Shown here: positions 10,729 through 52,937 of the stretch, in pieces
How positions within the stretch are numbered: the first letter of the stretch is position 1
Layout of the letters: the number at the start of each line of letters is the position of its first letter
Source of the DNA: an uncultured Clostridia bacterium
Lineage (GTDB): Bacteria > Bacillota > Clostridia > Lachnospirales > Lachnospiraceae
Direction of reading: 5' to 3'
Assembly (NCBI GenBank): GCA_947385945.1
Contig: CANDMY010000006.1
Coordinates: forward strand, 1-64,000
DNA length: 64,000 nt
Made by a program: the position numbers and the translations under genes
Notes under the pieces: model-generated
What the model was told of the DNA's origin: nothing
Databases searched by the model: none
Seen by the model: only the letters and a program-made list of their open reading frames with translations

Positions 10729-10977
10729 TGGGGGGAGGACGCCAGAGTATGGCATTGCAGTACTGTTTCGCTCTACAGAAAGTAAGAAGCTCTAAGACTT
10801 CTGAATTTAGATGCATCCAACCGGACGGACCGGGGTGCAATTCGCCCGTGCTGCGGGCTAAACACACCCCTTTTTTTGCCATTCAAGAATGGCAAAAAAT
10901 CCTCATGAATCGACAGAAGTCTAAAAGCTTCTAACTTTCCTCCGAAGTCACAGTACTGCAATGCCATACTCTGGCTG
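10729..10977 (-). repeat. F1 structured repeat, copy C (reverse orientation)
   Basis: Reverse complement carries the F1 core. Arms 'tatggcattgcagtact' and 'agtactgcaatgccata' are perfectly complementary. Confidence 0.85.
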
Positions 10978-11070
10978 TCTTTTTCCACAATATAGGTATT
11001 CTTTTTTCTCTTTTTTTGTTTTTTTAATCTATCAAGGAAGTAGCGGAGCGAATTCCGAATTTCCTTTGAC

Positions 11071-14965: not shown

Positions 14966-15232
14966 CGCCAGAAAGAACCAGCTGGAGTTTGGAAGCCCTT
15001 TCTCTATGCAGTGACTTCGGAGAAAAGTTAGAAAGTCTTATGCCTCTGTCGATCTCCTAGGATTTTTGCCATCTTCTGATGGCAAAAAAGGGGTGTGTTT
15101 AGCCCGCTGCACGGGCGAATTGCACCCCGGTCCGTCCGGTTGGATATATTTTCATTCAGAGGCATAAGACTTTCTTACTTTTCGGAGAGCGGAACAGCAT
15201 AGAGAAAGGGCTTCCAAACTCCAGCGTCCTCT
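14966..15232 (+). repeat. F1 structured repeat, copy D
   Basis: F1 core with the variant 'gccatcttctgatggc' central hairpin. Its arms 'gtttggaagccctttctctatgca' and 'agcatagagaaagggcttccaaac' are complementary and related to the arms of copy B. Confidence 0.85.
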
Positions 15233-25459: not shown

Positions 25460-25667
25460 GGATTTAATTTAACCTCCTAAATCTTTAAATTAAAAACATA
25501 TCGCCTATTTTATATAAAAATGCGGAGAGAAATCCATATTTTTCCTCTCCGATCTATTTACCATCTCTATTATAAAAGCAGCCTTAAAATTTTTCAACTA
25601 TATTTTATTATAAATATAATATTCCATGTAAAACATAGGAAAATTTTCACTAAAGCATAAAAATCAA

Positions 25668-25770
25668 AGGAAATTCGCAATCCGCTTCACTACTCGCTCA
25701 TAACCTCATAGCCACTATCGCAACTTTTCAATGAAAGTCTAAAGTCTGCACTTCCTTGATGAGGTTAAAA
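25668..25770 (+). repeat. F3 structured repeat, copy 2 (internally deleted)
   Basis: Shares F3 5' part 'ggaaattcgcaatccgct..ctcataacctcatagc..ctatcgca' and 3' end 'cttccttgatgaggttaaa'. Confidence 0.7.
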
Positions 25771-28663: not shown

Positions 28664-28916
28664 TGGGAAGCGATTCTTTTTTGCTGTGACTTCGGAGAAA
28701 AGTTAGAACGTCTTATGCCTCTGTCGATCCACTAGGATTTTTTGCCATTTCCAAATGGCAAAAAAAGGCACGTGTTTAGCCTCCTGCAGAGGCGAATTGC
28801 GTGCCGATCCGTCCGGTTAGATGCACCTAAACTCAGAGGCATTAGCCGTTCTTACTTTTCGGAGAGCGGAACAGCAAAAAAGAATCGCTTCCAAACTCTA
28901 GCGTCCCCCTCCCCCC
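28664..28916 (+). repeat. F1 structured repeat, copy E (divergent core with compensatory changes)
   Basis: Core helix 'ggggtgtg..cgaattgcacccc' becomes 'ggcacgtg..cgaattgcgtgcc'. Helix 'gcccgctgcacgggc' becomes 'gcctcctgcagaggc'. Central hairpin 'gccattcccgaatggc' becomes 'gccatttccaaatggc'. Pairing is preserved in all three. Confidence 0.85.
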
Positions 28917-31873: not shown

Positions 31874-32036
31874 CAAAGGAAATAAGGAAATTCGGAATCT
31901 GCTCCTTCCTCATAATCCTATGCTGCTATCGCTGCTTGTCAGATGGAACTTGCCCCCAACTGACACAAGGAAGTCCCCCAACCCACCGCTTTCGCCTTCA
32001 CGGCTTAGAAGCAGAGGACCTCCTTGATAGGTTAAA
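31874..32036 (+). repeat. F3 structured repeat, copy 3 (diverged)
   Basis: Shares F3 hairpins 'gctgctatcgctgc' and 'aagtccccc..', and the 3' end 'ccttgataggttaaaa'. Confidence 0.75.
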
Positions 32037-32085
32037 AAACACAAAAGCCCCGGATCTCTCCGGGACTTACTCTGCCGCAAAATCA

Positions 32086-32982: not shown

Positions 32983-33056
32983 TCGAGGTGACGTGATTCG
33001 AACACGCGACTTCTACGTCCCGAACGTAGCGCTCTACCAAACTGAGCCACACCTCG
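32983..33056 (-). tRNA. tRNA-Pro (anticodon CGG)
   Basis: Hand fold: acceptor CGAGGTG/CACCTCG, D-arm GCTC-AGTTTGGTA-GAGC, anticodon arm CTACG-TTCGGGA-CGTAG, T-arm GCGTG-TTCGAAT-CACGT, 74 nt. Confidence 0.8.
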
Positions 33057-36546: not shown

Positions 36547-36678
36547 GAATTCAAAAGAAATTTGTAATCCTATGCTGCTATCGCAGCTTGTCAAATAGGG
36601 CTTGTACCCCACCTGCCCCCAACCCACCGCTTTCGCCTTGGCGGCTTAGAAGCGGGGGACTTCCTTGATGAGGTTAAA
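36547..36678 (+). repeat. F3 structured repeat, copy 4
   Basis: Contains 'gctgctatcgcagc' and 'cgccttggcggcttagaagcgggggacttccttgatgaggttaaa'. Confidence 0.8.
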
Positions 36679-36750
36679 CTATCTAAAATCACACAAAAAC
36701 GGTTTTAATCAACCAAAATACTGCGACTGTTCCGGTTGGAATATACAGCT

Positions 36751-40643: not shown

Positions 40644-43600
40644 TCTTCTCCCTCCTCTATCCGAATCATTTGTCCCGCTGCTTCTTCTACTTCTTTCTGC
40701 ATCTTTTGTAAAATATCCTCATTGTCCATCTCATGCAGTCTTCGGTATTCATATCCTGTACTCTTTTCGTCAAATCCGCAGACCTCCCGAAATTCACAGT
40801 AATCGCATCCGGTTTCGGTTCCTTTCCGATACGGGGCAATCTGTGTATTTCCATCTAATATTTCTGCTCCCATTTGGCGTATCCGATTTCGTACATAAGC
40901 AGACACTGCTTCAAACTGCCTGGTATCGACAGCAGAAGAATTTTTACTTAAACTCCCATCTTTATTATAACTAATCGGAATGACATCAGAATGTTTATCC
41001 ATAGAGGAATCTAAAAGTGCAATTACTTCCGATGCACGGTTGACTAATCCGTTCATCTTTAGCTTAGAAAGCAGTTCCCTTTCAATCTGTTCCTCCCCCA
41101 TCTCTTCTGTCTCTTCAATTACCGGATCTTTAATATTATAATAAAAAATTCCTGCAGGAATCACGGTTTTCTCCACCCGCTTCCGCTGTTCTGTCTCCAT
41201 TGCCGCTTCCATATAAACTACCAGCTGAATCTGCAGACCATAGTAGACCGAGGACAGATTAAATTCAGCAACCCCAGATTTATAATCAATTACTTTAATA
41301 TAGATATGTTCTTCATCCTCATAGAGATCCATCCGATCCAACCGTCCGGCAAGGTACATATTTTCCTGATCCGAAATCGGAATCGTAAGGGCATCTAACT
41401 GATCGGCAGGAGAAAAAAAGACCTCATAATTAACTGGCTCAAACTTTCCTTTCTGCAGCTGTTTCTTCAATGCCCAGACTGTCCGATTTACAATCCTCTC
41501 TAATCGATCAATAAAATAAGCATTTCTTGCCGTACTCTGCAGCACATGATTTCCATAGTCAGCGGACGCCTCCTCCACAGATTCTTTTACCATCTTCTGC
41601 TGATCTTCTGGCGTTACCATACTCCATTTCATCCCGTTTTCCTTTATCTTATTCGAATAACGCTCAATCGAATTATGAAACAGATTTCCCATATCCACCG
41701 CTGCCATTTCAAATTCCTGACGTTTTGCAAGCCGAAGCCCATAGGTTAAAAAATGAGCAAATGCACAGGCAGCATAACGTTCTAACCGAGTTACACTATT
41801 AATCGGCTGCGGTCCATACAGTGCCGCCGCTGCCAGCTTTCCTATTCCGCTTTCGGTATTGTGATAGGAAACCGCTTCAAATAGCTGATCCATTCGCCCC
41901 TTCCAATTTTCTTGTCCCGCATACCAAGAAGTCAGTTCCAAAAAAATGGGATCGGCATTCTGCTGAATCGGATTTTGGCTAAATTCTAACAGCTTCGAAA
42001 TCCAATAGTGTAATGTCCCCTCTGGTGTTGTAATCTGCTGCAGCTCTTTCTCTCTCTTTTCCTCGTCCTCCTGCTCCAGTGCCGGAAATAATTTTTCAAT
42101 CGTATAGACTAAATAAGAGGGACGAATCGCTTCACCTGCCTGCGTATTTCTGCTGTAACTTAAATACAGCCGTTCAGAAGGCTTCGTCAGATTCAGATAC
42201 AAATAGAACTTCTGAATATAAGCATTTTCTTTTTGCGTAGGAGAAAGCGTAATCTTCTCTTCTTTTAGAAACTGCCGCTCCATCTGTGAGAACATCCCGC
42301 CTTTTCCACTGTTCTTAGGAATAATCCCGTCATTTAATCCCAAAAAGAACAAAACCCGAATTTCATTCAGACGAGTCCGCTCCATATCTCCAATTAAAAT
42401 CTGATCGATCGAAGGAGGAATCAATCCCACTTTTAATTCTTCAAATCCCGCATCCAAAATCCCGTTTAACTCCTGTGCCGAAATCTGTTCCTCTCCCAGC
42501 AATCCCACCACTTTATCAAATAATTCCATTACTAACGGATAGACCTGCTTATATTCTTTTTCCTTTGCCAAATGCCCCTGCTCCCGAAATGTACTCTCAT
42601 ATGCTTCCATTTTCTCCTGCAGACCGATTTCCTTTAAAAACCCATATAATGCTTCTATCTTTTCCTTTACGGTTCCTTTTTTCCGCTTCCAGACAGAAGA
42701 AAGGGTTTGAATCGGCAGCAGCACTGCCTCCCGAAGCTGATTCATCCGCTCTAACTCAAGCGGCTCGTCCTTTTTCATACTGCGTACCCAAAGTTTTTCC
42801 CACTGTCTCTGTCCCCGAATCCCCATAGCCAGACAATAATTTTCCAATAAATCTACATCTTCCCGTGCAATCGAAGTCATATTGCTTTTTAAATAACGAA
42901 AAACACTCTCATAAGAAAAATTATCTGCTATCATCTCCAATGTACTGCGAATAAACTCCACACAAGGATTTCCCATCATTCCCTTTTTCTGATCGACAAA
43001 ATAAGGAAGCTGATTTTCATTTAACACTTCCTCTAAACTATCCCGATATCCTTCCAAATCCCCTGCTATAATTGCAATATCTCGATAGCGGTACCCCCGT
43101 TCCCGTACTAAATTGACAATCTCTCTGGCAACATATGCCGCCTCTTTTGCCGGATTCCCCGCTACATGAATCGATACTGCCTCCTGCTTTTTCTTATAAG
43201 CCAGATAGGGATAACGAAATAAATTCCTCTCCAGCCAAAAAAGTGCCTCTGCCTGCCGGAATCGGTGATGTTCCTCCCCTGTCAGTACAATATCCTTCTC
43301 TTTAGGAATCTGCCGCTCCTCCGCCAAACGGATCAGATGGGAGATCATCTCTTTACTCATATGAAATAATTCCTGCTCCCCGCCAATCCGATAGGGATTT
43401 TCCCGTGCATCTATTGTAACTGTCAGAGTTACTTTAGGAGAAAGCATCAATAACAATCCAATCAACTGATACTGAATCGGTGTAAAACCAGTAAAACCAT
43501 CCAGCCAGACACTGCTTCTCTTTACCATATTAGACTCTGGTATCACTCGGCAGAGCACATCTAACTGCTCCTCTTTTGTAATATAATGCTCCTTTGTAAA

Positions 43601-44104
43601 CCGTTCAAATTCCTGTATAATAACCTGCATATCGTTTAACTTTGCATAAAGCATCGGTTTCTTTTTCGCACATGCCAGCATTTTCTCCTGCTCTTCTTCC
43701 CGAATTCCATACTGATAAAATTCCGATACAACCGATTTTATCTCACTTACCATCCCCGGTGTATGCCGTTTCTGTCCATAAAGTTTTAACTCTTCCTTCT
43801 TATTCTCCAGCACCTTCCGAAGCAGCAGATTTTTTCCGGTATCATCCAAAACAGGAAGCTGTGCCGCCCCCACTTCCGATAAAACCCGATAGGAAAGCCG
43901 CCCAAAACTTAAAATATCAATATTCATCACGCCATGTCTGGGATGAAGTTCTACAATATCCTTCTGTGTTTGCATAGAAAATTGTTCTGGTACAATTAAT
44001 AGAAAATTTTTCTCTGGATGTTCCATAGACTCCCGAATTAATTCCTGATATAAATATCTCGATTTTCCCGAACCAGAACCGCCTAAAATCAGTTGTAATG
44101 ACAT
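40634..44104 (-). CDS. addB: ATP-dependent helicase/nuclease subunit B (AddB)
   Basis: 1156 aa. N-terminal Walker A 'GGSGSGKS'. C-terminal nuclease and Fe-S Cys cluster ('CDYCEFREVC'). 10-nt overlap with addA. Confidence 0.9.
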   Translation of the reverse strand: MSLQLILGGSGSGKSRYLYQELIRESMEHPEKNFLLIVPEQFSMQTQKDIVELHPRHGVMNIDILSFGRLSYRVLSEVGAAQLPVLDDTGKNLLLRKVLENKKEELKLYGQKRHTPGMVSEIKSVVSEFYQYGIREEEQEKMLACAKKKPMLYAKLNDMQVIIQEFERFTKEHYITKEEQLDVLCRVIPESNMVKRSSVWLDGFTGFTPIQYQLIGLLLMLSPKVTLTVTIDARENPYRIGGEQELFHMSKEMISHLIRLAEERQIPKEKDIVLTGEEHHRFRQAEALFWLERNLFRYPYLAYKKKQEAVSIHVAGNPAKEAAYVAREIVNLVRERGYRYRDIAIIAGDLEGYRDSLEEVLNENQLPYFVDQKKGMMGNPCVEFIRSTLEMIADNFSYESVFRYLKSNMTSIAREDVDLLENYCLAMGIRGQRQWEKLWVRSMKKDEPLELERMNQLREAVLLPIQTLSSVWKRKKGTVKEKIEALYGFLKEIGLQEKMEAYESTFREQGHLAKEKEYKQVYPLVMELFDKVVGLLGEEQISAQELNGILDAGFEELKVGLIPPSIDQILIGDMERTRLNEIRVLFFLGLNDGIIPKNSGKGGMFSQMERQFLKEEKITLSPTQKENAYIQKFYLYLNLTKPSERLYLSYSRNTQAGEAIRPSYLVYTIEKLFPALEQEDEEKREKELQQITTPEGTLHYWISKLLEFSQNPIQQNADPIFLELTSWYAGQENWKGRMDQLFEAVSYHNTESGIGKLAAAALYGPQPINSVTRLERYAACAFAHFLTYGLRLAKRQEFEMAAVDMGNLFHNSIERYSNKIKENGMKWSMVTPEDQQKMVKESVEEASADYGNHVLQSTARNAYFIDRLERIVNRTVWALKKQLQKGKFEPVNYEVFFSPADQLDALTIPISDQENMYLAGRLDRMDLYEDEEHIYIKVIDYKSGVAEFNLSSVYYGLQIQLVVYMEAAMETEQRKRVEKTVIPAGIFYYNIKDPVIEETEEMGEEQIERELLSKLKMNGLVNRASEVIALLDSSMDKHSDVIPISYNKDGSLSKNSSAVDTRQFEAVSAYVRNRIRQMGAEILDGNTQIAPYRKGTETGCDYCEFREVCGFDEKSTGYEYRRLHEMDNEDILQKMQKEVEEAAGQMIRIEEGEEWQ

Positions 44105-44227
44105 GAAATCCCTCCTTTGTTTATTCCAGTCAGCTATAAAAATTCTTATTTTCTATTATAACATACCATCTAAAAAGATACCACCTTTTCAGACAGCAGA
44201 AGAAACTCATATCCAAAAAAATTCCCC

Positions 44228-44470
44228 GGAAATAACGCCAGAGTACTTGAAAGGGAACTGTTCCGCTCTCCGAAAAGCAGAAGCTCTAAGACTTCTGAAT
44301 CTAGGCATATCCAACCGGACGGATCGGGGTGCAATTCGCCCGTACAGCGGGCTAAACACACCCCTTTTTTTGCCATTCGAGAATGGCAAAAAATCCTAGT
44401 GGATTGACAGAAGTCTAAGAGCTTCTAACTTTCCTCCGAAGTCACAGTTCCCTTTCAAGTACTCTGGCTG
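44228..44470 (-). repeat. F1 structured repeat, copy F (reverse orientation)
   Basis: Reverse complement carries the F1 core. Arms 'tacttgaaagggaact' and 'agttccctttcaagta' are complementary. Confidence 0.85.
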
Positions 44471-44965
44471 TATTGTCTCACAATCTACTTTTTTTCTCTT
44501 TGCTCCATTATATTCTTATTCTTTTTTGTTAAATTTCCTTCTTTCTTTTTTTATTAAAAATAATTTTAGAATTTTTGCATTGGTCAAAGCGGATTGCGAA
44601 TATCCGATTTGACTATCCCTATCAGACATTTCTCTATATCAGCCGTAATCATTTTATGCTTGTATTTTACACACCAAACAATATGATATTGGATGGAATA
44701 TACCTATCCACGTCCATGAGTCACTTCCATATAGAATCACCTCGTTATACAAACGATAATAGATGTATGTTGTTATATCAATTATTTTTAGCATTATTAC
44801 TTGAAATTTAATTAACATATGTGAGCAATTCATCCCACGACTAAATGCTCATGTACGGTAAAGAAACAAGAAACCGAAAACAAGAGATAGACCTCCAGCA
44901 CCACACTATTCCGAACCAAAGACCAAAAGACAAGCATGATGGAATCCCTCTCTCATTCCTTTATG

Positions 44966-45313
44966 TCAAAAAGATTTTCCGCTGTTTTCCGTTCCCCATT
45001 GACACATACTTTCCATAATGGGGAGGAGGGAACGTCCTTTATTTGAAAGACTATACTCAACTTTTGGCGGTATCTGCGGATATTCTTTACGGATAATAAG
45101 CCCGTCTGCTTCCAATGCCTTTAACTCTGTACTTAATGTTTTGTAGGTGATTGTTCCGATTTTTCGTTGTAGTTCGTTAAAACGTATTGTGTCGTATTCA
45201 ACGAGCCAATAGAGAATAACCAGCCGCCATTTTCCACCAATCATAGATAATGTATAGCCAAAAGGAGTATCAGTCAAAGAAACAATTCTCTTTTCAAATT
45301 TTTCCATGCTCAT
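44966..45313 (-). CDS. HxlR-family (MarR-like) transcriptional regulator
   Basis: 'GGKWRLVILYWL..RFNEL...ITYKTLSTELKALEADGLIIRKEYPQIPPKVEYSLS'. An AAGGAAAG RBS precedes the ATG at 45313. Confidence 0.8.
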   Translation of the reverse strand: MSMEKFEKRIVSLTDTPFGYTLSMIGGKWRLVILYWLVEYDTIRFNELQRKIGTITYKTLSTELKALEADGLIIRKEYPQIPPKVEYSLSNKGRSLLPIMESMCQWGTENSGKSF

Positions 45314-45424
45314 ATAGGTACTTTCCTTAAAGATAGTATTTGTCAAAAAAGTGCGTACTTGTCTTTTTGACATTGCGAATATAGAATAGCATAAAGAACG
45401 ATATTTAGCAAGGGAGTAAAAAGC

Positions 45425-46006
45425 ATGAAAAGAATAATGGTTATTTTAGGCGGCGGGCGTGTCAATGGAAATACGTCACAGTTAGCAGAAGCATTTATGA
45501 ACGGAGCTAAAGAAGCCGGACACCAAGTAGAGATGGTATCATTGAACAAACTGAATGTGAATGGCTGCATAGGCTGTAATGCCTGTCGCTATGGTAAATC
45601 TTGTGTACAAAAAGATGATTTTAATTCACTTGTTCCAAAGATAAAAACGGCGGATTTAATCGTATTTGCGTCACCTTTATATTTCTGGACTGTATCATCA
45701 AAAATTAAAGCATTTATTGAACGTTTTTACTGTATAGCAGAAAAAGACGAGAATCCACCTTTGGGACGATATGAGAAATATCCCATACATGATTGTGCTT
45801 TGCTTATGACTTCCGCTGATAACTTTTTTTGGACGTTTGAGCAGGCTGTTTCTTACTACAAGTTTACATTGATAAACTATATCGGTTTTCACAATAAAGG
45901 TATGTTGCTTGCTGGTGGTTGTGGTGAAACAAACGGGAAACCTCAGATTTCAAAAACCACTCATTTAAGGGAAGCATATGAATTTGGAAAAGCAATTTAC
46001 GAATAA
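45425..46006 (+). CDS. NAD(P)H-dependent FMN reductase / flavodoxin-like oxidoreductase
   Basis: 'MKRIMVILGGGRVNGNTSQLAEAF' and 'ADLIVFASPLYFW'. Divergently transcribed from the HxlR regulator, a classic pairing. Confidence 0.7.
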   Translation: MKRIMVILGGGRVNGNTSQLAEAFMNGAKEAGHQVEMVSLNKLNVNGCIGCNACRYGKSCVQKDDFNSLVPKIKTADLIVFASPLYFWTVSSKIKAFIERFYCIAEKDENPPLGRYEKYPIHDCALLMTSADNFFWTFEQAVSYYKFTLINYIGFHNKGMLLAGGCGETNGKPQISKTTHLREAYEFGKAIYE

Positions 46007-46026
46007 ATGAAAAGGGGCTTTGAAAA

Positions 46027-46344
46027 ATGATGAAGAAATGTAAATTAACTATCTTGAAAACAACGCTTCAAGAAGATTTAGCAAAGGAATATGGCGTTCC
46101 CAATTTAAGCATATGTCCTTTGATGAAAGAAGGACAGGTATTCTATGCCGACTATGCGAAGCCAGAGGGCTTTTGTGACGAAGCATGGAAAGCTATCTAT
46201 CAGTATGTATTTGCATTGGCAAATGGTGCAGAGGGTTGGTACTCTGATGATTGGATTGACCCCAAGCATAAAGATGTGGCAATTTGTTCATGCAATGACG
46301 GATTAAGACCTGTAATTATCAAAGTTGAGCGAGTTAATGAATAA
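46027..46344 (+). CDS. Hypothetical small Cys-rich protein (105 aa), co-directional with the flavoreductase
   Basis: ORF 20 bp downstream of the preceding gene. No confidently recognised domain. Confidence 0.5.
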   Translation: MMKKCKLTILKTTLQEDLAKEYGVPNLSICPLMKEGQVFYADYAKPEGFCDEAWKAIYQYVFALANGAEGWYSDDWIDPKHKDVAICSCNDGLRPVIIKVERVNE

Positions 46345-46412
46345 TCGGAAGATTATATAAATGCAACCGTAAACCATGCAACGCCCTATGTGGAAGAAAG
46401 AGGGAATCGTTT

Positions 46413-46961
46413 ATGCCCTGCACAGAAGCATACAGAAAACACATCATGTATACGTTCAATAGCTATTGCAAGACCGTTATACGCTTTGCGGCTATTAACG
46501 CATGGCGTGACAGGAGCAGACGGCGGCAAAAGGAAATATCCCTTGAATACCTCACAGAAGAAAAGTTTTACCCTTTAGGCACAACAGACGAATATTTTGA
46601 AGCACCCTATAAAGAATACCCCGTTACGATATGCGGTCAAACTTGTATTGCGGGAGCTGCCGCCAGCTTCAAAGACCGTAACGAATATATCTCCCGCCTT
46701 TGCAGCTTCCCCTTGCTTATCCTTGATGATTTCGGCATGGAGCGTGGCACGGAATACGGCTTAGAGCAAATCTATAACGTGGTTGACAGCCGATACCGCA
46801 GCGGCAAGCCGTTAATCGTGACAACGAACCTCACGCTGGAAGAATTGCAGAACCCGGAGGACACCGCCCACGCCCGCATTTATGACCGCCTTACAGAAAT
46901 GTGCTGCCCCGTCTGCATTACCGGGGAGAATTTCAGAAAAACCAAAGCACAGGCGGACTAA
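46413..46961 (+). pseudogene. Mobile-element relic: IstB/DnaC-like ATPase C-terminal fragment fused to an unrelated N-terminal stretch
   Basis: 'PLLILDDFGMERGTEYGLEQIYNVVDSRYRSGKPLIVTTNLTLEEL' is the Walker B and sensor region of IstB/DnaC helper ATPases. No Walker A is present. The locus is GC-rich. Confidence 0.55.
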
Positions 46962-46988
46962 AAACACATTACCCGGCGTGAGCTGAAA

Positions 46989-47561
46989 TTATTTTCGTCC
47001 AAAATACCTTCGGACTTTGCTTTTGTAGGCGTTGTACTCTGCCCCAAATGCCTTTGACAAGAACTTTTCTTCTTGTAGTATTTGCAGATGAAGCATTGTC
47101 ATGGCAAAAACAGAAAACACCAGCAAAACCCAGTTAAAGGCTATAAGCAGCAGACCTATATAAACACAATCAAAGGCTAAAAAGGCGGGATTTCTGCTTA
47201 TGCGGTAAATCCCGCCGGTAATGATTTCTGTTTTATCGTTTTCTGCTATGCCAGCCCGCCAACTGTCTTTCATTGTTACGACTGATACAGTAAAAAGAAT
47301 ATCTCCAATAAATCCAAGAACCACACCAACAGCAACAAGCGTTTGCGGCAGAAATGGAGGTGCAAAGAACAGGCTGAGGACTTCCGCCACAACCACGGAA
47401 TAAGTAGCTATTTTCATAGCCAGCTCAATGTAGAATACCTTTGTTTTCTGCTTGCCTTTTGCTATCTGGTCTGTCTGTATGCCTTTTCTTTTTTGCAATA
47501 TCATCTTGCTGATGTAGACTGCATAAAACACGGCAAGTATCAGTAATCCTATAATTTTCAT
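46989..47561 (-). CDS. Isoprenylcysteine carboxyl methyltransferase (ICMT) family membrane methyltransferase
   Basis: Multi-TM protein with the C-terminal motif 'GGIYRISRNPAFLAF' and 'E..FG..Y..Y'. Confidence 0.7.
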   Translation of the reverse strand: MKIIGLLILAVFYAVYISKMILQKRKGIQTDQIAKGKQKTKVFYIELAMKIATYSVVVAEVLSLFFAPPFLPQTLVAVGVVLGFIGDILFTVSVVTMKDSWRAGIAENDKTEIITGGIYRISRNPAFLAFDCVYIGLLLIAFNWVLLVFSVFAMTMLHLQILQEEKFLSKAFGAEYNAYKSKVRRYFGRK

Positions 47562-47650
47562 TATGTTTCCTTTCTCATGGGAACAGTGTTTTTTAATAAG
47601 ACCAGTATATCACACAAAAGCAGATTTTTCCACATTAGATAGCCCGTGTC

Positions 47651-48319
47651 TTGACGGAACAGCAGACCCCCACGCCGGGGACGCTGGAATACCGCCGGAC
47701 GGGAAGCACACGCCGCTACCACCCCGGCTATGAGTGCAAGTGGGCGACAAACACCGTGGCGCATATCCTTGAAAACCGGGAATACACGGGCTGCCTTGTG
47801 AACTTCAAGACCGAGAAAGTGTCCTACAAGGTAAAGCAGAGCATGGAGAACCCCGAAGAAAAACAGGCAGTCTTTGAGAACCACCACGAGCCTATCATAG
47901 ACCGTGACACATGGGAGCGTGTGCAGGAGCTACGCAAGCAGCGCAAACGCCCTAACCGCTATGATGAAGTGGGCTTGTTCTCCGGCATACTCTTTTGTGC
48001 CGACTGCGGCAGCGTCATGTACCAGCAGAGGTATCAAACGGACAAGCGGCGGCAGGACTGCTACATATGCGGCAGCTACAAGAGGCACACCCGTGACTGT
48101 ACGGTGCACTTTATCCGCACCGACCTCTTGACCGTGGGAATGACCGAGAACCTACGGAAAGTCACCAGCTACGCCGCCAAGCACGAAGCACGGTTTATGA
48201 AGCTGTTGACCGAGCAGACCGAGGACGGGAGCAAACACCGGAACGCCGCCAAGAAGAAAGAGCTGGAAGCGGCAGAAAAGCGGATTGCGGAACTCTCCGC
48301 TATCTTCAAGCGGCTGTAG
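47651..48319 (+). pseudogene. C-terminal fragment of a large serine recombinase (recombinase domain, zinc beta-ribbon, coiled coil). The N-terminal catalytic resolvase domain is absent.
   Basis: 'TVAHILENREYTGCLV', Zn ribbon 'CADCGSVMY...CYICGSYKRHTRDC' and a C-terminal coiled coil. No catalytic Ser domain upstream. Local GC is markedly higher than in the flanks. Confidence 0.65.
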
Positions 48320-48682
48320 GAGGACAGCGTGGCGGGACACATATCGGACGAGCGTTTCACAGAGCTTTCGGCAGGCTACGAAGCCGAGCAAAAGTATATA
48401 TAAAATCCATATTTTCATCAAAGTTAAGCTGATACATTCTGAAGATAACCGGGAAATCTTTTGGCTGCCATTGTTCTTCATAGGAATAGCAGTATTTCAT
48501 TCCTACCCGATTATATCAACCAGCTTTTTTCCGATTCCCTGTCTTCTGTATTCTTTCTTAACCGTTGCGTGATAGATAAAACCTTTGTGCCTGTCATGTC
48601 TATCCATTATGTATCCATAAATCCTATATTTTTTCAAAATCTTTCATATCCATATTGTCATTATTACCGTTCTTCTTATGCT

Positions 48683-49183
48683 CTATTTATTCATTTTAAA
48701 TTTTTCCAGCCGATAATGCTGCTCATCATCCAATTCTTTTATTCCGTTTTTATATTCATACCCCTTTTTCCGATAAAATTCTACTGCAGTAATAGATGCG
48801 GGAATTTCTATTCTCTCTGCCCTTAAAAATAATTCATCGGATTCAAGAGTATCAATAATATAACTACCGATCCCCTGCCTATGAATTTCCGGCAGCACAA
48901 AAATAGTAAGCAAAATACTTTCTGTAAGGCTTCCCCAAAAACTTGATATAGAACCAACACCCACAATGTTATTTTCATTCCAAAATACATACACATGTGC
49001 ATGTTCTGCCACACCCTTAAACCAATTTACATCATGCGTAGCAGAGAGTATATCCACCGCTCTTTCCCCGTAATCTTTCACGTTGACTTCCTTGAAATTT
49101 CTATGAATCAGCTTGACAATTTCTTCCGCATCTTCTTCACGATAAGGCTTAGCAATAACCTCTGTTCCATTTGATAATTTCAT
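48683..49183 (-). CDS. GNAT-family N-acetyltransferase
   Basis: Acetyl-CoA binding motif A 'HRQGIGSYII'. A GAAAGGAG RBS precedes the ATG at 49183. Confidence 0.75.
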   Translation of the reverse strand: MKLSNGTEVIAKPYREEDAEEIVKLIHRNFKEVNVKDYGERAVDILSATHDVNWFKGVAEHAHVYVFWNENNIVGVGSISSFWGSLTESILLTIFVLPEIHRQGIGSYIIDTLESDELFLRAERIEIPASITAVEFYRKKGYEYKNGIKELDDEQHYRLEKFKMNK

Positions 49184-49563
49184 AAAAAACTCCTTTCCAA
49201 ACAAAAAAACACTAAACATACAATATGTCCAGTGCACTTCTAAAACCATCGGCTATTGCAAATATAATTACAACTTACACCTACTAATTTATATGCACAG
49301 ACATATCAGACCTACCTGCGTAACTGTGCATCCAATCAAAAACACAATTACTTCTAAGTACGTCTGTCATACATGTACATATCATTCATTGTAAAATGTA
49401 AGTTCTGCATTTTCACGTTCTCCTAAACTTTTTTAATAACTTACCATAATTCTATTTATATGTCAAGAAATATTTCTGAAACGAACCATATAACTTTATT
49501 TTTGATTTTAAAATATATATCATTCATTCCATATCAACCCCAAACCAACAGTCAAATCGGATA

Positions 49564-49716
49564 TTCGCAATCCGCTTTGCTACTTGCTCATAACCTCATA
49601 GCTTCTATCGCAGCTTTTCAGTGGGAGTCTGCACTCCCACTGAAACAAAGAAGTCCCAACCCACCGCTTTCGCCTTGGCGGTTTAGAAGCGGGGGACTTC
49701 CTTGATGAGGTTAAAC
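49564..49716 (+). repeat. F3 structured repeat, copy 5 (near-identical to copy 1)
   Basis: 'aatcggatattcgcaatccgctttgctacttgctcataacctcatagc...cttgatgaggttaaa'. Confidence 0.85.
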
Positions 49717-49866
49717 AACCCTTTACCTGCCTAATACCAAACTTCAAAGAAAATAATCCTATTCCAAAAAACCAAATAAACTTTTACACTATCTTTGAAA
49801 AAAGAAAAGCAAAGTAACAAAGAAGACATTCTCTTTCCCCTCTGCATTTCTTACCTTTAAAATATC

Positions 49867-49946
49867 AAAGGAAATTCGGAATCCGCTCCGCTGCCTCCTC
49901 ATAATCCTATCCTGCGTCAAATAGGACTTCCTTAATAGATTAAAAA
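49867..49946 (+). repeat. F3 structured repeat, copy 6 (short or deleted form)
   Basis: 'ggaaattcggaatccgctccgct..ctcataatcctatcctgcg...cttccttaatagattaaaa'. Confidence 0.6.
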
Positions 49947-49999
49947 CAAAAAACTCTACAGATGAATGAATCAACTCTAACCTTACAGGCAGGAAAAGA

Positions 50000-50256
50000 C
50001 AGCCAGAGTGGGAAAGCCATTTCTTCCCGCTGTGACTTCGGAGGAAAGTTAGAATGTCTTATGCTTCTGTCGATCCACTAGGATTTTTTGCCATTCTCGA
50101 ATGGCAAAAAAAGGGGTGTGTTTAGCCCGCAGCACGGGCGAATTGCACCCCGGTCCGTCCGGCTGGATGCACCTATCCCCAGAAGCATTAGACATTCTTA
50201 CTTTCCGCAGAGCGGAACAGCGGGAAGAAATGGCTTTCCCACTCTAGCGTCCTCCC
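50000..50256 (+). repeat. F1 structured repeat, copy G
   Basis: F1 core. Arms 'tgggaaagccatttcttcccgct' and 'agcgggaagaaatggctttccca' are complementary. Confidence 0.85.
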
Positions 50257-50345
50257 CTTCCCCACTCTAGCGTCCTCCCCTTCCCCACTCCAGCGTTCTC
50301 CCCTTCCCCGCTCCAACATCCTCCCCCCAATCCCCTCACTCTCAC
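50241..50345. repeat. C-rich tandem repeat, '(c)cactctagcgtcctccccttcc' in 3-4 copies, extending the 3' terminus of F1 copy G
   Basis: Direct reading. Confidence 0.75.
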
Positions 50346-50474
50346 ACCCAAACTTTTCCCTCACCAGTCATATTTTCCCCTCCCCCTACATACCTTGTAA
50401 CAAAACTTAAATTTTTGTGTACTGACCGACGCATAAATCAGGCAGTACACTTATCTGCAAAGGGGATCTCAAAT

Positions 50475-50942
50475 ATGAGTGCAAAGACCAAAATTGTTGT
50501 ATTACATATGAGGGAAGTCATTTATACTGCTATTTTTGTAGCCCTCGGTATCTTCCTTGTCCTGCTTTTTATCTATATGTTTCTGCCTGATGATGCTTCC
50601 GATAAGCAAATCCTACCAGAAACAGCTCCTACCTTTTTAGCAGGCATTTATACCTCTTCTGTTGATGCAGGAAATCAAGCCATGCAGATTGAGGTCATTG
50701 TTGACAAAAACCATATCAATTCCATTCGTTTAGTCAATTTAGACCAAACCGCAGATGTCAGCAATCCTCTAATGGAAACAACCTTAAACAACCTGTCTGC
50801 ACAGATACTAAGCAACCAGTCATTAGAAGGCATCACCTGCTCCGATGTCAATCGCTATACCGCTCAAACACTCTATGACGCCATTAAGCGTGCCGTTAAA
50901 AAAGCCTCTACTGTCTCAGGCAATGGAGTCACCGCAAACTAA
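50475..50942 (+). CDS. Hypothetical membrane-anchored protein (N-terminal TM helix, about 110-aa extracytoplasmic domain)
   Basis: An RBS 'AAAGGGGA' precedes the ATG at 50475. It has a TM segment 'VIYTAIFVALGIFLVLLFIYMFL'. The longer ORF-track start lacks an RBS. Confidence 0.5.
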   Translation: MSAKTKIVVLHMREVIYTAIFVALGIFLVLLFIYMFLPDDASDKQILPETAPTFLAGIYTSSVDAGNQAMQIEVIVDKNHINSIRLVNLDQTADVSNPLMETTLNNLSAQILSNQSLEGITCSDVNRYTAQTLYDAIKRAVKKASTVSGNGVTAN

Positions 50943-51017
50943 CCGCAAAAAAGGGAGAGCCTTCCCAAACGAACACTCTCCCTAACCCAAATCTTTTATA
51001 ATTATATAAAATCTCCC

Positions 51018-52937
51018 CTATTCCATCCTTTCCAGCTCCTCCATCCAAATCCGAACACAAGCATCACTTGGCATCCGAAGATCCCCTCTAGGCGACACAG
51101 CCACCGATCCCACCTTCGGTCCATCCGGCAGACAAGACCGTTTAAACTGCTGAGAAAAAAACCTCCGATAAAAAGTCTTCATCCACTTTACAATCTCTTC
51201 TCTCTGATAAACCCCCTCAAATGCTTTTTCTGCCAAAAAGCATATTTTCTTCGGTGTATACCCAAACCGAAGCATATAATATAAATAAAAATCATGTAGC
51301 TCATAAGGTCCGACAATATCCTCTGTCTTCTGAGCAATCTCTCCGTCTTTAGGCGGCAGCAGTTCTGGACTCACTGGAGTATCCAGTACATCCAGCAGTA
51401 CATTTGACAGTTCCTGATCCTGACAGGTATCCGCATAATACCGCACCAAATGTCTTACCAACGTTTTTGGCACGGATGCATTTACCCCATACATTGACAT
51501 ATGATCTCCATTATAAGTCGCCCATCCAAGTGCCAATTCTGACATATCCCCGGTTCCAACCACCATGGAATTCCCCTGATTGGCAAAATCCATCAGTACC
51601 TGCGTCCGCTCCCGTGCCTGTGCATTTTCATAAGTGACATCCTGTAAACTGGGATCTTGTCCAATATCTTGAAAATGACGCAGCACTGCTTCCCGAATAT
51701 CCACTTCCTTTAATTTTGCTCCCAGCCGCTCTGTCAGCCGTATCGAATTTTGATACGTTCGATCCGTAGTTCCAAAACAAGGCATGGTAACAGCCATAAT
51801 CTGCTTTCGCTCCAGCCCCAGCAAATCAAATGCCCGTGCTGTAACCAAAAGTGCCAATGTCGAATCCAACCCGCCGGAAATACCAATAACCGCCGAATTA
51901 CAACCAGTATGCTCTAACCGCTTCTTTAACCCCATTGCCTGAATTGACAAAATCTCCTCGCATCGCTTATCCCGATCCGCCTTTTCACTTGGAACAAATG
52001 GTGCTGGATCGACATACCGATAAAATCCTTCCGCTTCTTTTGCTTCCTTTATAGAAAAATATATGGTTTGATAAACTCCTTCTGCTGCCCCAAATGTCTT
52101 CATTCTTCGTCTTTCACTGTGTATCCGCTCCAGATCCAAATCTGCCGTTATCATCTGATTTTGAAACCGCACTGCTTCCGCTAACAGCGTTCCATTTTCT
52201 GCTATGATATGATGTGCTGCAAAAACCAGATCGGTACTCGATTCTCCCTCTCCGGCATCTGCATAAAGATAGCCGCAAACCAACCGTGCCGACTGGCTTT
52301 CTACCAACTGTCTGCGATAGCGATCTTTCCCCGTTGTCTCATCACTTGCAGAAAGATTGATCATTACCGTAGCCCCCGCTAAGGCATGGCGAGTACTAGG
52401 AGGACAAGGCACCCAAAGATCCTCACAAATTTCTGCAGCCAGTGTAAATCCTGCTATTGTTTCACACTGAAACAAGAGATTCGTTCCCATAAAGACCCGC
52501 TCTCCTCCAAATATAATCTCAACCGGTTCCTCCATTCCTTCTTTAAAATGTCTTGCTTCATAAAATTCGGAATAATTCGGGATAGCACGCTTTGGCACAA
52601 GTCCTAATACTTTTCCGTCAAATAAGATCGCAGCAAGATTATAGAGACCTCCCTTCCATTCCATAGGAAATCCCACTGCCACCACAATATTCTTTCCTTT
52701 TGTATAATCCCGAAGTAAAATCACCTGTTCTTTTGCTAGACGCAATAAACTGTTCTGCAGAAATAAATCCCCGCAGGTATAACCAGTTATTCCTAATTCT
52801 GGCAAAACCAAAAGTTTTACCTGCATCGTTACCGCCTGATCGATTATCTTTTCTGTCTGTTCTCTATTGTAAATACAATCAGCAACCTTTATCTTTGGTG
52901 CTGCCGCCGACACACGCAAAAACCCGTTTGATATCAT
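51018..52937 (-). CDS. nadE: Glutamine-dependent NAD(+) synthetase (N-terminal nitrilase/CN-hydrolase domain plus NAD synthetase domain)
   Basis: 639 aa. CN-hydrolase catalytic region 'AAEICEDLW'. P-loop-like 'GISGGLDS' of the NAD synthetase / N-type ATP pyrophosphatase. Confidence 0.9.
   Translation of the reverse strand: MISNGFLRVSAAAPKIKVADCIYNREQTEKIIDQAVTMQVKLLVLPELGITGYTCGDLFLQNSLLRLAKEQVILLRDYTKGKNIVVAVGFPMEWKGGLYNLAAILFDGKVLGLVPKRAIPNYSEFYEARHFKEGMEEPVEIIFGGERVFMGTNLLFQCETIAGFTLAAEICEDLWVPCPPSTRHALAGATVMINLSASDETTGKDRYRRQLVESQSARLVCGYLYADAGEGESSTDLVFAAHHIIAENGTLLAEAVRFQNQMITADLDLERIHSERRRMKTFGAAEGVYQTIYFSIKEAKEAEGFYRYVDPAPFVPSEKADRDKRCEEILSIQAMGLKKRLEHTGCNSAVIGISGGLDSTLALLVTARAFDLLGLERKQIMAVTMPCFGTTDRTYQNSIRLTERLGAKLKEVDIREAVLRHFQDIGQDPSLQDVTYENAQARERTQVLMDFANQGNSMVVGTGDMSELALGWATYNGDHMSMYGVNASVPKTLVRHLVRYYADTCQDQELSNVLLDVLDTPVSPELLPPKDGEIAQKTEDIVGPYELHDFYLYYMLRFGYTPKKICFLAEKAFEGVYQREEIVKWMKTFYRRFFSQQFKRSCLPDGPKVGSVAVSPRGDLRMPSDACVRIWMEELERME

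Follow-up and report, generated by a model that had tools for sequence, protein, structure and literature searches.

Tn4451 and Tn4453 are mobilizable transposons of Clostridium perfringens and C. difficile that carry the large resolvase TnpX together with TnpW. For Tn4451/Tn4453, PMC6822371 cites Lyras & Rood 2000; integrative mobilizable elements (IMEs) in general are treated in PMC5704250, and the serine-recombinase IMEs of gut Bacillota include IME_Rho_tet, which bears tet(W)/tet(32) (PMC12904643). Here we report on a GC-rich segment at about 46345-48396 of a 64,000-nucleotide (nt) stretch of DNA (contig CANDMY010000006.1, positions 1 to 64,000, forward strand; hereafter the window). The segment is very probably an immobile, decaying remnant of a TnpX/TnpW-type IME in the chromosome of an uncultured mouse-gut Lachnospiraceae bacterium. 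The locus is a relic of a known kind, and nothing in it goes against current understanding.

The parent element, as represented by intact relatives on other contigs, resembles Tn4451/Tn4453 in pairing a TnpX-type large serine recombinase with a small TnpW (PF14202) and in belonging to the mobilizable, not self-conjugative, elements of Clostridia. It differs in that tnpW lies next to tnpX, with RepA_N and an IstB-like ATPase ahead of the pair (contig L004), that catP, tnpV and tnpZ were not seen, and that its recombinase carries DUF4368; the copy in the window, moreover, is dead. Compared with the serine-recombinase IMEs of gut Bacillota, the parent is likewise small and encodes MobC, a relaxase and a serine recombinase besides its cargo, and the relative on L005 recalls IME_Rho_tet in that a TetM/W/O/S-family gene immediately precedes its sigma/IstB fusion, TnpW and recombinase. 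Unlike IME_Rho_tet, with which the comparison was made by gene content, the cargo here is an ICMT-family methyltransferase gene instead of tet, and a block of HxlR, FMN reductase and TIGR04076 genes is perhaps further cargo.

A collinear remnant of a TnpX/TnpW-type element

The features on which the argument rests are as follows.

46345-46657, + strand: 5′ part (~80 codons) of a sigma-70-region-4-type regulator gene, without region 4; GC 0.435
46413-46961, + strand: sigma/IstB fusion open reading frame (ORF), 182 amino acids (aa); Pfam IstB_IS21 at profile positions 148-234 of 238 only
46658-46954, + strand: 3′ part of an IstB/DnaC-like AAA+ ATPase gene, codons ~170-267 of 284; GC 0.534
46944-46955, no strand: junction of a 213-nt deletion between 9-nt direct repeats AAAGCACAG; polymorphic
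46955-46981, + strand: last 9 codons of tnpW (GLKTHYPA and stop), from comparison with TnpW of L001, L004 and L005
46989-47561, − strand: intact ICMT/PEMT-family membrane methyltransferase gene, 190 aa; GC 0.40
47637-48396, + strand: internal fragment of a TnpX-like large serine recombinase gene, codons ~207-458 of ~539; GC 0.57
47651-48319, + strand: 222-aa ORF with a partial Recombinase domain and Zn_ribbon_recom, no Resolvase (Pfam)
47759-47762, no strand: GCGC site in the recombinase fragment, one of only three in the 64-kb window
47941-47944, no strand: second surviving GCGC of the recombinase fragment

An earlier reading of the bare sequence (the sequence-only reading) had described a sharp rise in GC over the flanks, clearest at 47600-48350, and this was borne out quantitatively. 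The recombinase and IstB fragments reach a GC content of 0.57 and 0.53 against a window mean of 0.41. In 400-nt windows, GC was 0.47-0.51 at 46400-47000 and 0.54-0.58 at 47600-48400, compared with a mean of 0.407 (standard deviation 0.040) outside the relic region, which places the relic at a z-score of up to 4.2; the top five windows of the entire 64 kb all fall within 47600-48400, in the recombinase fragment. A parallel shift was observed in tetranucleotide usage, with the two GC-rich pieces lying at an L1 distance of 0.535 from the rest of the window, relative to 0.251 ± 0.029 (maximum 0.328) for size-matched random segments. Between these pieces, the ICMT segment is host-like (GC 0.398).

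Both ORFs had also been called truncated, and their full-length homologues are indeed much longer (284 and ~539 aa). Neither of the outcomes that the sequence-only reading had named against itself, namely short homologues being normal or the lack of a measurable compositional shift, occurred.

The first ORF, with its ATG at 46413, is a fusion whose N-terminal part is the sigma-like piece. Its first ~80 residues align with complete Sigma70_r4 proteins of L037 (172 aa) and P0122/L005, and tblastn maps residues 9-226 of the L005 sigma/IstB protein to 46392-46952. The fusion proposed earlier therefore stands, and what had been taken as unrelated N-terminal sequence derives from the 5′ portion of a sigma-70-region-4-type gene; this gene piece joins the element backbone near 46650-46657, inside the ORF. 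Beyond it, the ORF matches full-length IstB relatives, which are 283-284-aa ATP-binding proteins with a Walker A motif (GxVGTGKS), over residues ~170-267 only (91-96% identity), and 46658-46949 matches nt 507-798 of the L004 IstB gene at 90% identity (blastn). The fragment scores 30.7 bits against PF01695 (IstB_IS21; cut-off 24.1, profile positions 148-234) and 135 bits against NCBIfam PRK08116, under the cut-off of 189. Walker B (LLILDDFG) is present, while Walker A and the final ~17 codons are gone, in agreement with the helper ATPase without Walker A recognised from the sequence, since the fragment starts at residue ~170 of 284. A complete TnpW ORF (~63-65 aa, PF14202) is absent from the window, where 9 codons of it are left. 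We considered that the 30 nt downstream of ICMT might be cassette sequence and rejected this, as they are the native 3′ end of tnpW.

The second fragment retains the Recombinase domain in part (PF07508, 65.2 bits, profile positions 39-102 of 102 only) and a zinc beta-ribbon (PF13408, 45.4 bits). No Pfam match to the PF00239 Resolvase catalytic domain with its serine nucleophile was found, the alignment starting at family residue ~207. The C-terminal DUF4368 (PF14287) and an uninterrupted frame of ~540 codons are likewise missing; the fragment stops at residue ~458, without the C-terminal ~80 residues and with a partial coiled-coil region. The domain content given by the sequence-only reading thus holds for the Recombinase domain, the zinc ribbon and the missing catalytic domain, and needs amendment for the coiled coil, which is only partly present, and for DUF4368, which is also gone. 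The 222-aa ORF of 47651-48319 is too short as well, for the recombinase frame extends over 47639-48396, interrupted by a TAG at 48317-48319 in place of the Tyr codon of its relatives. Positions 47637-48394 match nt 602-1359 of L004 tnpX at 89% identity (blastn), and the DNA just upstream is ICMT cassette. The search for serine-recombinase homologues that had been proposed returned TnpX-like relatives, plentiful in gut metagenomes at 87-91% identity and ~539 aa at full length.

The arrangement of the parent was read from intact relatives. On L004, which has the intact 284-aa IstB relative, one strand carries MobC, a relaxase (PF03432), Cys_rich_VLP, RepA_N, the IstB-like ATPase, a 63-aa TnpW and a 539-aa recombinase with Resolvase, Recombinase, Zn ribbon and DUF4368 domains, and no conjugation genes were seen there; L005 has the TetM/W/O/S-family gene, the sigma/IstB fusion, TnpW and the recombinase in this order. 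Together with the sharp limits of homology in the window, these gene orders identify both fragments as the terminal module of one TnpX/TnpW-type IME, and the relic is one collinear remnant, IstB–TnpW–(ICMT)–TnpX, in native order and orientation. The decayed integrative or conjugative element (ICE) of the sequence-only reading is accordingly retained as mobile-element debris of a kind common in gut Clostridia, and is better classed as an IME of the TnpX/TnpW type.

Relaxase, MobC and RepA_N had no match anywhere in the 64-kb window, no second copy of the element was found within it, and a megablast search of 46300-48450 against plasmid and phage collections gave no match. As the sequence-only reading had proposed, att-like direct repeats were looked for, here at the relic edges, and none was found, nor were inverted ones; none is expected, since both edges are internal deletion endpoints in element genes. 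Judged as a functional IME or ICE, the locus has a truncated recombinase, no relaxase match in the window and no attL/attR direct repeats, and lacking a recombinase, a relaxase and ends the remnant should be unable to excise or transfer.

The sequence-only reading had placed an ICMT-family gene on the opposite strand between the fragments, which we confirmed and can now refine to cargo of the element itself within one collinear piece. The protein matches ICMT (PF04140, 39.3 bits) and PEMT (PF04191, 41.8 bits) over their full length and above cut-off, scores 60.6 bits against NF040696 (protein-S-isoprenylcysteine O-methyltransferase equivalog), under the cut-off of 160, and has close homologues that are all 188-190 aa long; the cassette, including its own upstream region, reaches ~47635. 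A variant of 96% identity (P0241) occurs on mouse-gut contigs L032-L036, where IstB with Walker A is followed by complete TnpW, ICMT on the opposite strand, a 215-nt spacer and tnpX from codon 1, and L032 matches L004 on either side of a ~700-nt cassette in the tnpW–tnpX spacer. Positions 46944-47635 of the window are 95.8% identical to L032, after which the match jumps to tnpX codon ~207, which indicates that a single deletion took what remained of the spacer along with tnpX codons up to ~206. Replacement of the tnpX 5′ end by the cassette was rejected, because L032 shows insertion into the spacer, followed here by simple deletion.

Homologues of the ICMT gene with 84-92% identity are found in at least five other genomic contexts. 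In four of these (L014, L026, L030 and L031), 25-60 nt of tnpW tail or element spacer lie beside ICMT; L026 also has a frameshifted, AT-enriched tnpX piece (residues ~180-245), and L031 has tnpX codons 1-18. Among seven copies, the ratio of non-synonymous to synonymous divergence (dN/dS) of ICMT is 0.09-0.17, which suggests that the gene is functional and was repeatedly retained as the backbone eroded. The host-like GC (0.40) and diversity of the ICMT gene, and the many chromosomal contexts of its homologues, would also fit an ordinary host gene lying between unrelated debris of separate events. This is highly improbable, as IstB–TnpW–ICMT–TnpX is collinear with intact elements and recurs in L032-L036, ICMT copies elsewhere keep tnpW and spacer remnants, and sister species lack the whole island, ICMT included. 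ICMT is the element's own cargo, no interloper, and the only part still under selection.

The comparisons show the following course. One lineage of these IMEs gained the ICMT cassette, inserted on the opposite strand between tnpW and tnpX. In this genome, a copy from that lineage lost everything upstream of IstB codon ~170, now joined to ~80 sigma-like codons, as well as the ICMT–tnpX spacer with the first ~206 tnpX codons, and hence the catalytic serine domain, and everything beyond tnpX codon ~458. In some strains, the window included, a further 213 nt were lost between the 9-nt direct repeats, and in most strains a tnpX Tyr codon became TAG. The backbone fragments would since drift neutrally toward the AT-rich, GCGC-free composition of the host, part of this push probably being C→T change at the inner CpG of GCGC, with ICMT presumably kept by selection as a domesticated cargo gene.

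Decay among strains and loss of GCGC sites

The exact ICMT protein occurs on at least 21 contigs of the species from independent samples. All of the 8 distinct places displayed have the addAB…nadE context with the relic, as do L001 and L002, and the relic is fixed in the species. To follow its decay, ten same-species contigs (L001, L002 and L006-L013), whose flanks are 98-99% identical, were aligned over 44900-49300. Although the genome is metagenome-assembled, the same junctions recur in these ten contigs from different samples and assemblers, and with the spread of the exact ICMT protein this leaves a chimeric contig, or an assembly or binning artefact, a negligible chance.

The lesions themselves vary among strains. 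The window, L008-L010, L012 and L013 share the 213-nt deletion, through which IstB lost its 3′ end and tnpW most of its length, whereas L001, L002, L006, L007 and L011 retain the 213 nt, including a 64-aa TnpW ORF (PF14202 in L001, 30 bits against a cut-off of 25). The TAG at 48317-48319 is polymorphic (TAC in L008), the first ORF of two contigs differs by a 1-nt indel, and some strains carry substitutions at conserved residues, those of the zinc ribbon among them. Segregating sites per 100 nt were distributed as follows.

HxlR, FMN_red, TIGR04076 and GNAT genes: 1.2-2.5, with third-position bias
ICMT: 1.6
IstB part: 6.9, codon positions 8/11/2
tnpX fragment: 10.0, codon positions 20/37/19

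Site diversity in the relic is thus ~5 times that of neighbouring genes and shows no third-position bias. Within the species, dN/dS was 0.10 for ICMT and 0.57 for the sigma/IstB ORF, and the derived singletons of the tnpX fragment (8 synonymous, 14 non-synonymous) lie near the 32% synonymous share that the observed mutation spectrum would give if changes were placed at random.

A sigma-like N-terminus fused to an IstB C-terminus was also observed at L003 2164-2736 and L005 2960-3688; the L003 fusion has nearly the same junction as the window (ELAA microhomology), and the L005 junction differs. The joint is either recurrent or ancient. The IstB part of the window has a synonymous divergence (dS) of 0.37 to the intact L004 IstB compared with 1.09 to the L003 fusion, and this closer relation to L004 favours independent or mosaic origins of the fusions. 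A conserved functional family of sigma/IstB fusions (P0123, P0122) was considered and, from the dN/dS comparisons, judged unlikely here.

More broadly, the truncated proteins might be functional, the recombinase fragment, left with DNA binding only, as a repressor or immunity factor that acts on incoming elements of its own family, or the sigma/IstB fusion as a real family. The ORF of 182/196 aa is open in all strains, similar-junction fusions of ~60% identity exist in other elements (P0123, P0122), the IstB part has a dN/dS of 0.15 between window and L003, and dN/dS in the tnpX fragment is below 1 within the species. The polymorphic nonsense codon, 213-nt deletion and 1-nt indel nevertheless speak against function, as do the codon-position spectra (20/37/19 and 8/11/2), the replaced zinc-ribbon and other conserved residues, a direct reading in which the sole in-frame start is TTG with no Shine-Dalgarno-like sequence just upstream, and the dS values suggestive of independent fusions. 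We regard function of these fragments as quite unlikely, and neutral decay of an inactivated IME as the better reading.

The changes have a direction. When polarised by L004, 39 were GC→AT and 14 AT→GC, and 10 of the 69 segregating sites fell on the 16 inner-CpG positions of GCGC, where 1.45 were expected (P = 2e-6), an excess that holds also under nulls restricted to G/C or to CpG positions; nine of these ten changes were C→T or G→A. GCGC sites number 7 in the L004 homologue of this stretch (about 7-8 in the parent) and 0-5 in the strains, and those of the recombinase fragment are mutation hotspots. The third GCGC of the window, at 33029, lies in tRNA-Pro. Outside the relic, observed over expected counts were 1/59.6 for GCGC, 9/97 for GGCC and 6/43.8 for CGCG, whereas at the sister-species loci on L022 and L023 GCGC occurs at normal frequency (14/19.2 and 11/8.4), so that the avoidance is lineage-specific.

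Bacterial methyltransferase sites such as Dcm CCWGG and HhaI-type GCGC are mutational hotspots owing to 5-methylcytosine, and restriction-site avoidance is also established. The relic resembles the former in the clustering of transitions at the inner CpG of GCGC, and the host sequence resembles the latter in being nearly devoid of GCGC, GGCC and CGCG; unlike known 5-methylcytosine hotspots, the present case is known from sequence alone and its depletion is lineage-specific. Deamination of G5mCGC would be the most likely and simplest cause of the C→T changes at GCGC.

Several observations weigh against the account given here of a decaying IME remnant with deamination at GCGC. Pairs of strains within the species give the tnpX fragment a dN/dS of 0.1-0.4 instead of 1, and a synonymous divergence (0.06-0.12) that exceeds the value for adjacent genes 3-5-fold, and its shared variants are richer in synonymous changes than its singletons; part of the variation may reflect gene conversion with intact elements, or predate inactivation. 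The similar fusions in L003 and L005 join at about the same point, so that the fusion in the window may predate integration. A motif search found no ORF with C5-methyltransferase motifs in the window, and the GCGC sites of the sister species (n = 14) are replaced here by many types of change, not only GTGC or GCAC, so that selection against the site could stand in place of deamination. The left edge is also in doubt, since the HxlR–FMN_red–TIGR04076–sigma block may be cargo of the same element or a separate acquisition.

The divergence pattern of the tnpX fragment, together with the clustering of changes (e.g., 48091-48094), raises the question of whether fragment diversity comes from repeated gene conversion by intact, selected element copies instead of neutral decay in situ. 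Derived changes are mostly GC→AT and concentrated at GCGC, the singletons fit the neutral expectation, and the window holds no second copy, and we consider conversion unlikely as the source of this diversity, though it is a serious contender. The two processes are not mutually exclusive: the higher mutability of GC-rich DNA explains part of the excess divergence, and gene conversion from intact elements may explain the remainder.

The 6.2-kb accessory island

AddB of this genome is 100% identical to that of the mouse-gut catalogue genome MGBC128194. The larger unit around the relic is the following.

44126-50348, no strand: accessory island of 6.2 kb with HxlR, FMN reductase, the TIGR04076 gene, the relic, a GNAT pseudogene piece and a GNAT gene

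Divergent TwoAYGGAY RNA elements flank it on either side. In the sister species of L023 (AddB 88% identical), addB and the orf175 homologue are separated by ~112 nt, and in that of L022 the gap is ~900 nt with one TwoAYGGAY-like copy. These short gaps show that 44126-50348 is an accessory island with the relic as its GC-rich core; the empty-site comparison proposed by the sequence-only reading therefore gave an empty site in sister species, for this larger island.

To the left of the relic, the block at 44966-46344 plus the sigma piece comprises HxlR (−), an NADPH-dependent FMN reductase, TIGR04076 and the sigma-70-region-4 gene. The same block with a complete sigma-like gene occurs in unrelated gut metagenome contigs, L037 (5533-7816) and L038, from which it follows that the block's last gene, cut short, supplies the N-terminus of the first ORF. 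Homologues of the FMN reductase adjoin serine recombinases and relaxases in other contigs (e.g., L098), so the block is possibly mobile cargo of the same element. To the right, a frameshifted GNAT acetyltransferase pseudogene piece (48400-48640, − strand; its ORF at 48503-48637 matches GNAT profiles) sits between the relic edge and the intact GNAT gene at 48683-49249.

Two inverted repeats, one of 30 nt and perfect (44585-44614/49550-49579) and one of 176 nt (44272-44447/50030-50205), were considered as ends of a transposon or invertible segment and rejected, because both are copies of genome-wide repeat families (an IS200/IS605-like miniature inverted-repeat transposable element, MITE, and the TwoAYGGAY RNA) and hence not element ends. 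The TwoAYGGAY-type hairpin element, ~190-270 nt long, has seven copies in the 64 kb.

227-413: TwoAYGGAY copy
4862-5049: TwoAYGGAY copy
10739-11012: TwoAYGGAY copy
15011-15197: TwoAYGGAY copy
28684-28874: TwoAYGGAY copy
44231-44474: TwoAYGGAY copy, left of the relic
50002-50248: TwoAYGGAY copy, right of the relic

Against RF01731 (gathering score 43), 65.3 bits were obtained at 44265-44441(−) and 63.7 bits at 4868-5042(+). Compensatory changes among the seven copies were found in 35 of 91 pairs, and the outer stems have wholly different sequence between copies with pairing kept. TwoAYGGAY has been described in a preprint as multi-copy, repeat-flanked and present in divergent doublets (10.64898/2026.09.22.753630). 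Rfam scans of long stretches (43500-51500; 1-64000), at gathering or E-value threshold, reported no TwoAYGGAY, and scans of ~300 nt recovered it well above the gathering score, a caveat of filter sensitivity for this family; even a 400-nt scan missed the copy at 50002-50248, despite its 87% identity to the left copy. Beside this right-hand copy, 50234-50325 holds 3-4 tandem copies of a 23-nt unit, CTTYCCCACTCTAGCGTCCTCCC, which repeats its outer 5′ stem.

A further repeat of ~160 nt with internal hairpins was observed at 2029-2191, 25661-25740, 31886-32040, 36618-36679 and 49550-49715, and also as a fragment at 44585-44614 and at L001 9053-9204. In L001 and L002 it interrupts the FMN reductase gene immediately following TTAA; the target is not duplicated, and terminal inverted repeats are absent. 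Judging from these sequence features, it seems to behave like IS200/IS605-type MITEs (palindrome-associated transposable elements, PATEs), and its placement suggests recent activity. L012 has a weak Y1_Tnp ORF near the region of this repeat.

Meaning of the relic

Collectively, the observation and interpretation of the sequence-only reading were correct in substance. New beyond it are the element family, the exact lesions and ICMT as the surviving cargo. It is also new that the relic is fixed in the species while its ongoing decay is polymorphic, that amelioration focuses on GCGC and that a larger island surrounds the relic. For annotation, the two ORFs are pseudogene fragments and the ICMT gene is element-derived cargo. 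The locus exemplifies the stepwise decay of an element, with lesions that can be dated against strain variation, as well as the domestication of a cargo gene and motif-specific amelioration at GCGC.

Only the GCGC signal and the repeated survival of ICMT might reward more work. Taken jointly, they permit a tentative proposal, which we hold to be possible though doubtful, that a species-specific GCGC-directed system purges GCGC sites from the relic strain by strain while ICMT has been retained recurrently at no fewer than five (at least 5) Lachnospiraceae loci. Such a system could act through 5-methylcytosine methylation with subsequent deamination, or through selection imposed by an enzyme that cuts GCGC. 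If this were true, the relic would be a natural, population-level record of a host erasing foreign DNA, and the repeated retention of ICMT would imply a selectable function for this bacterial ICMT family.

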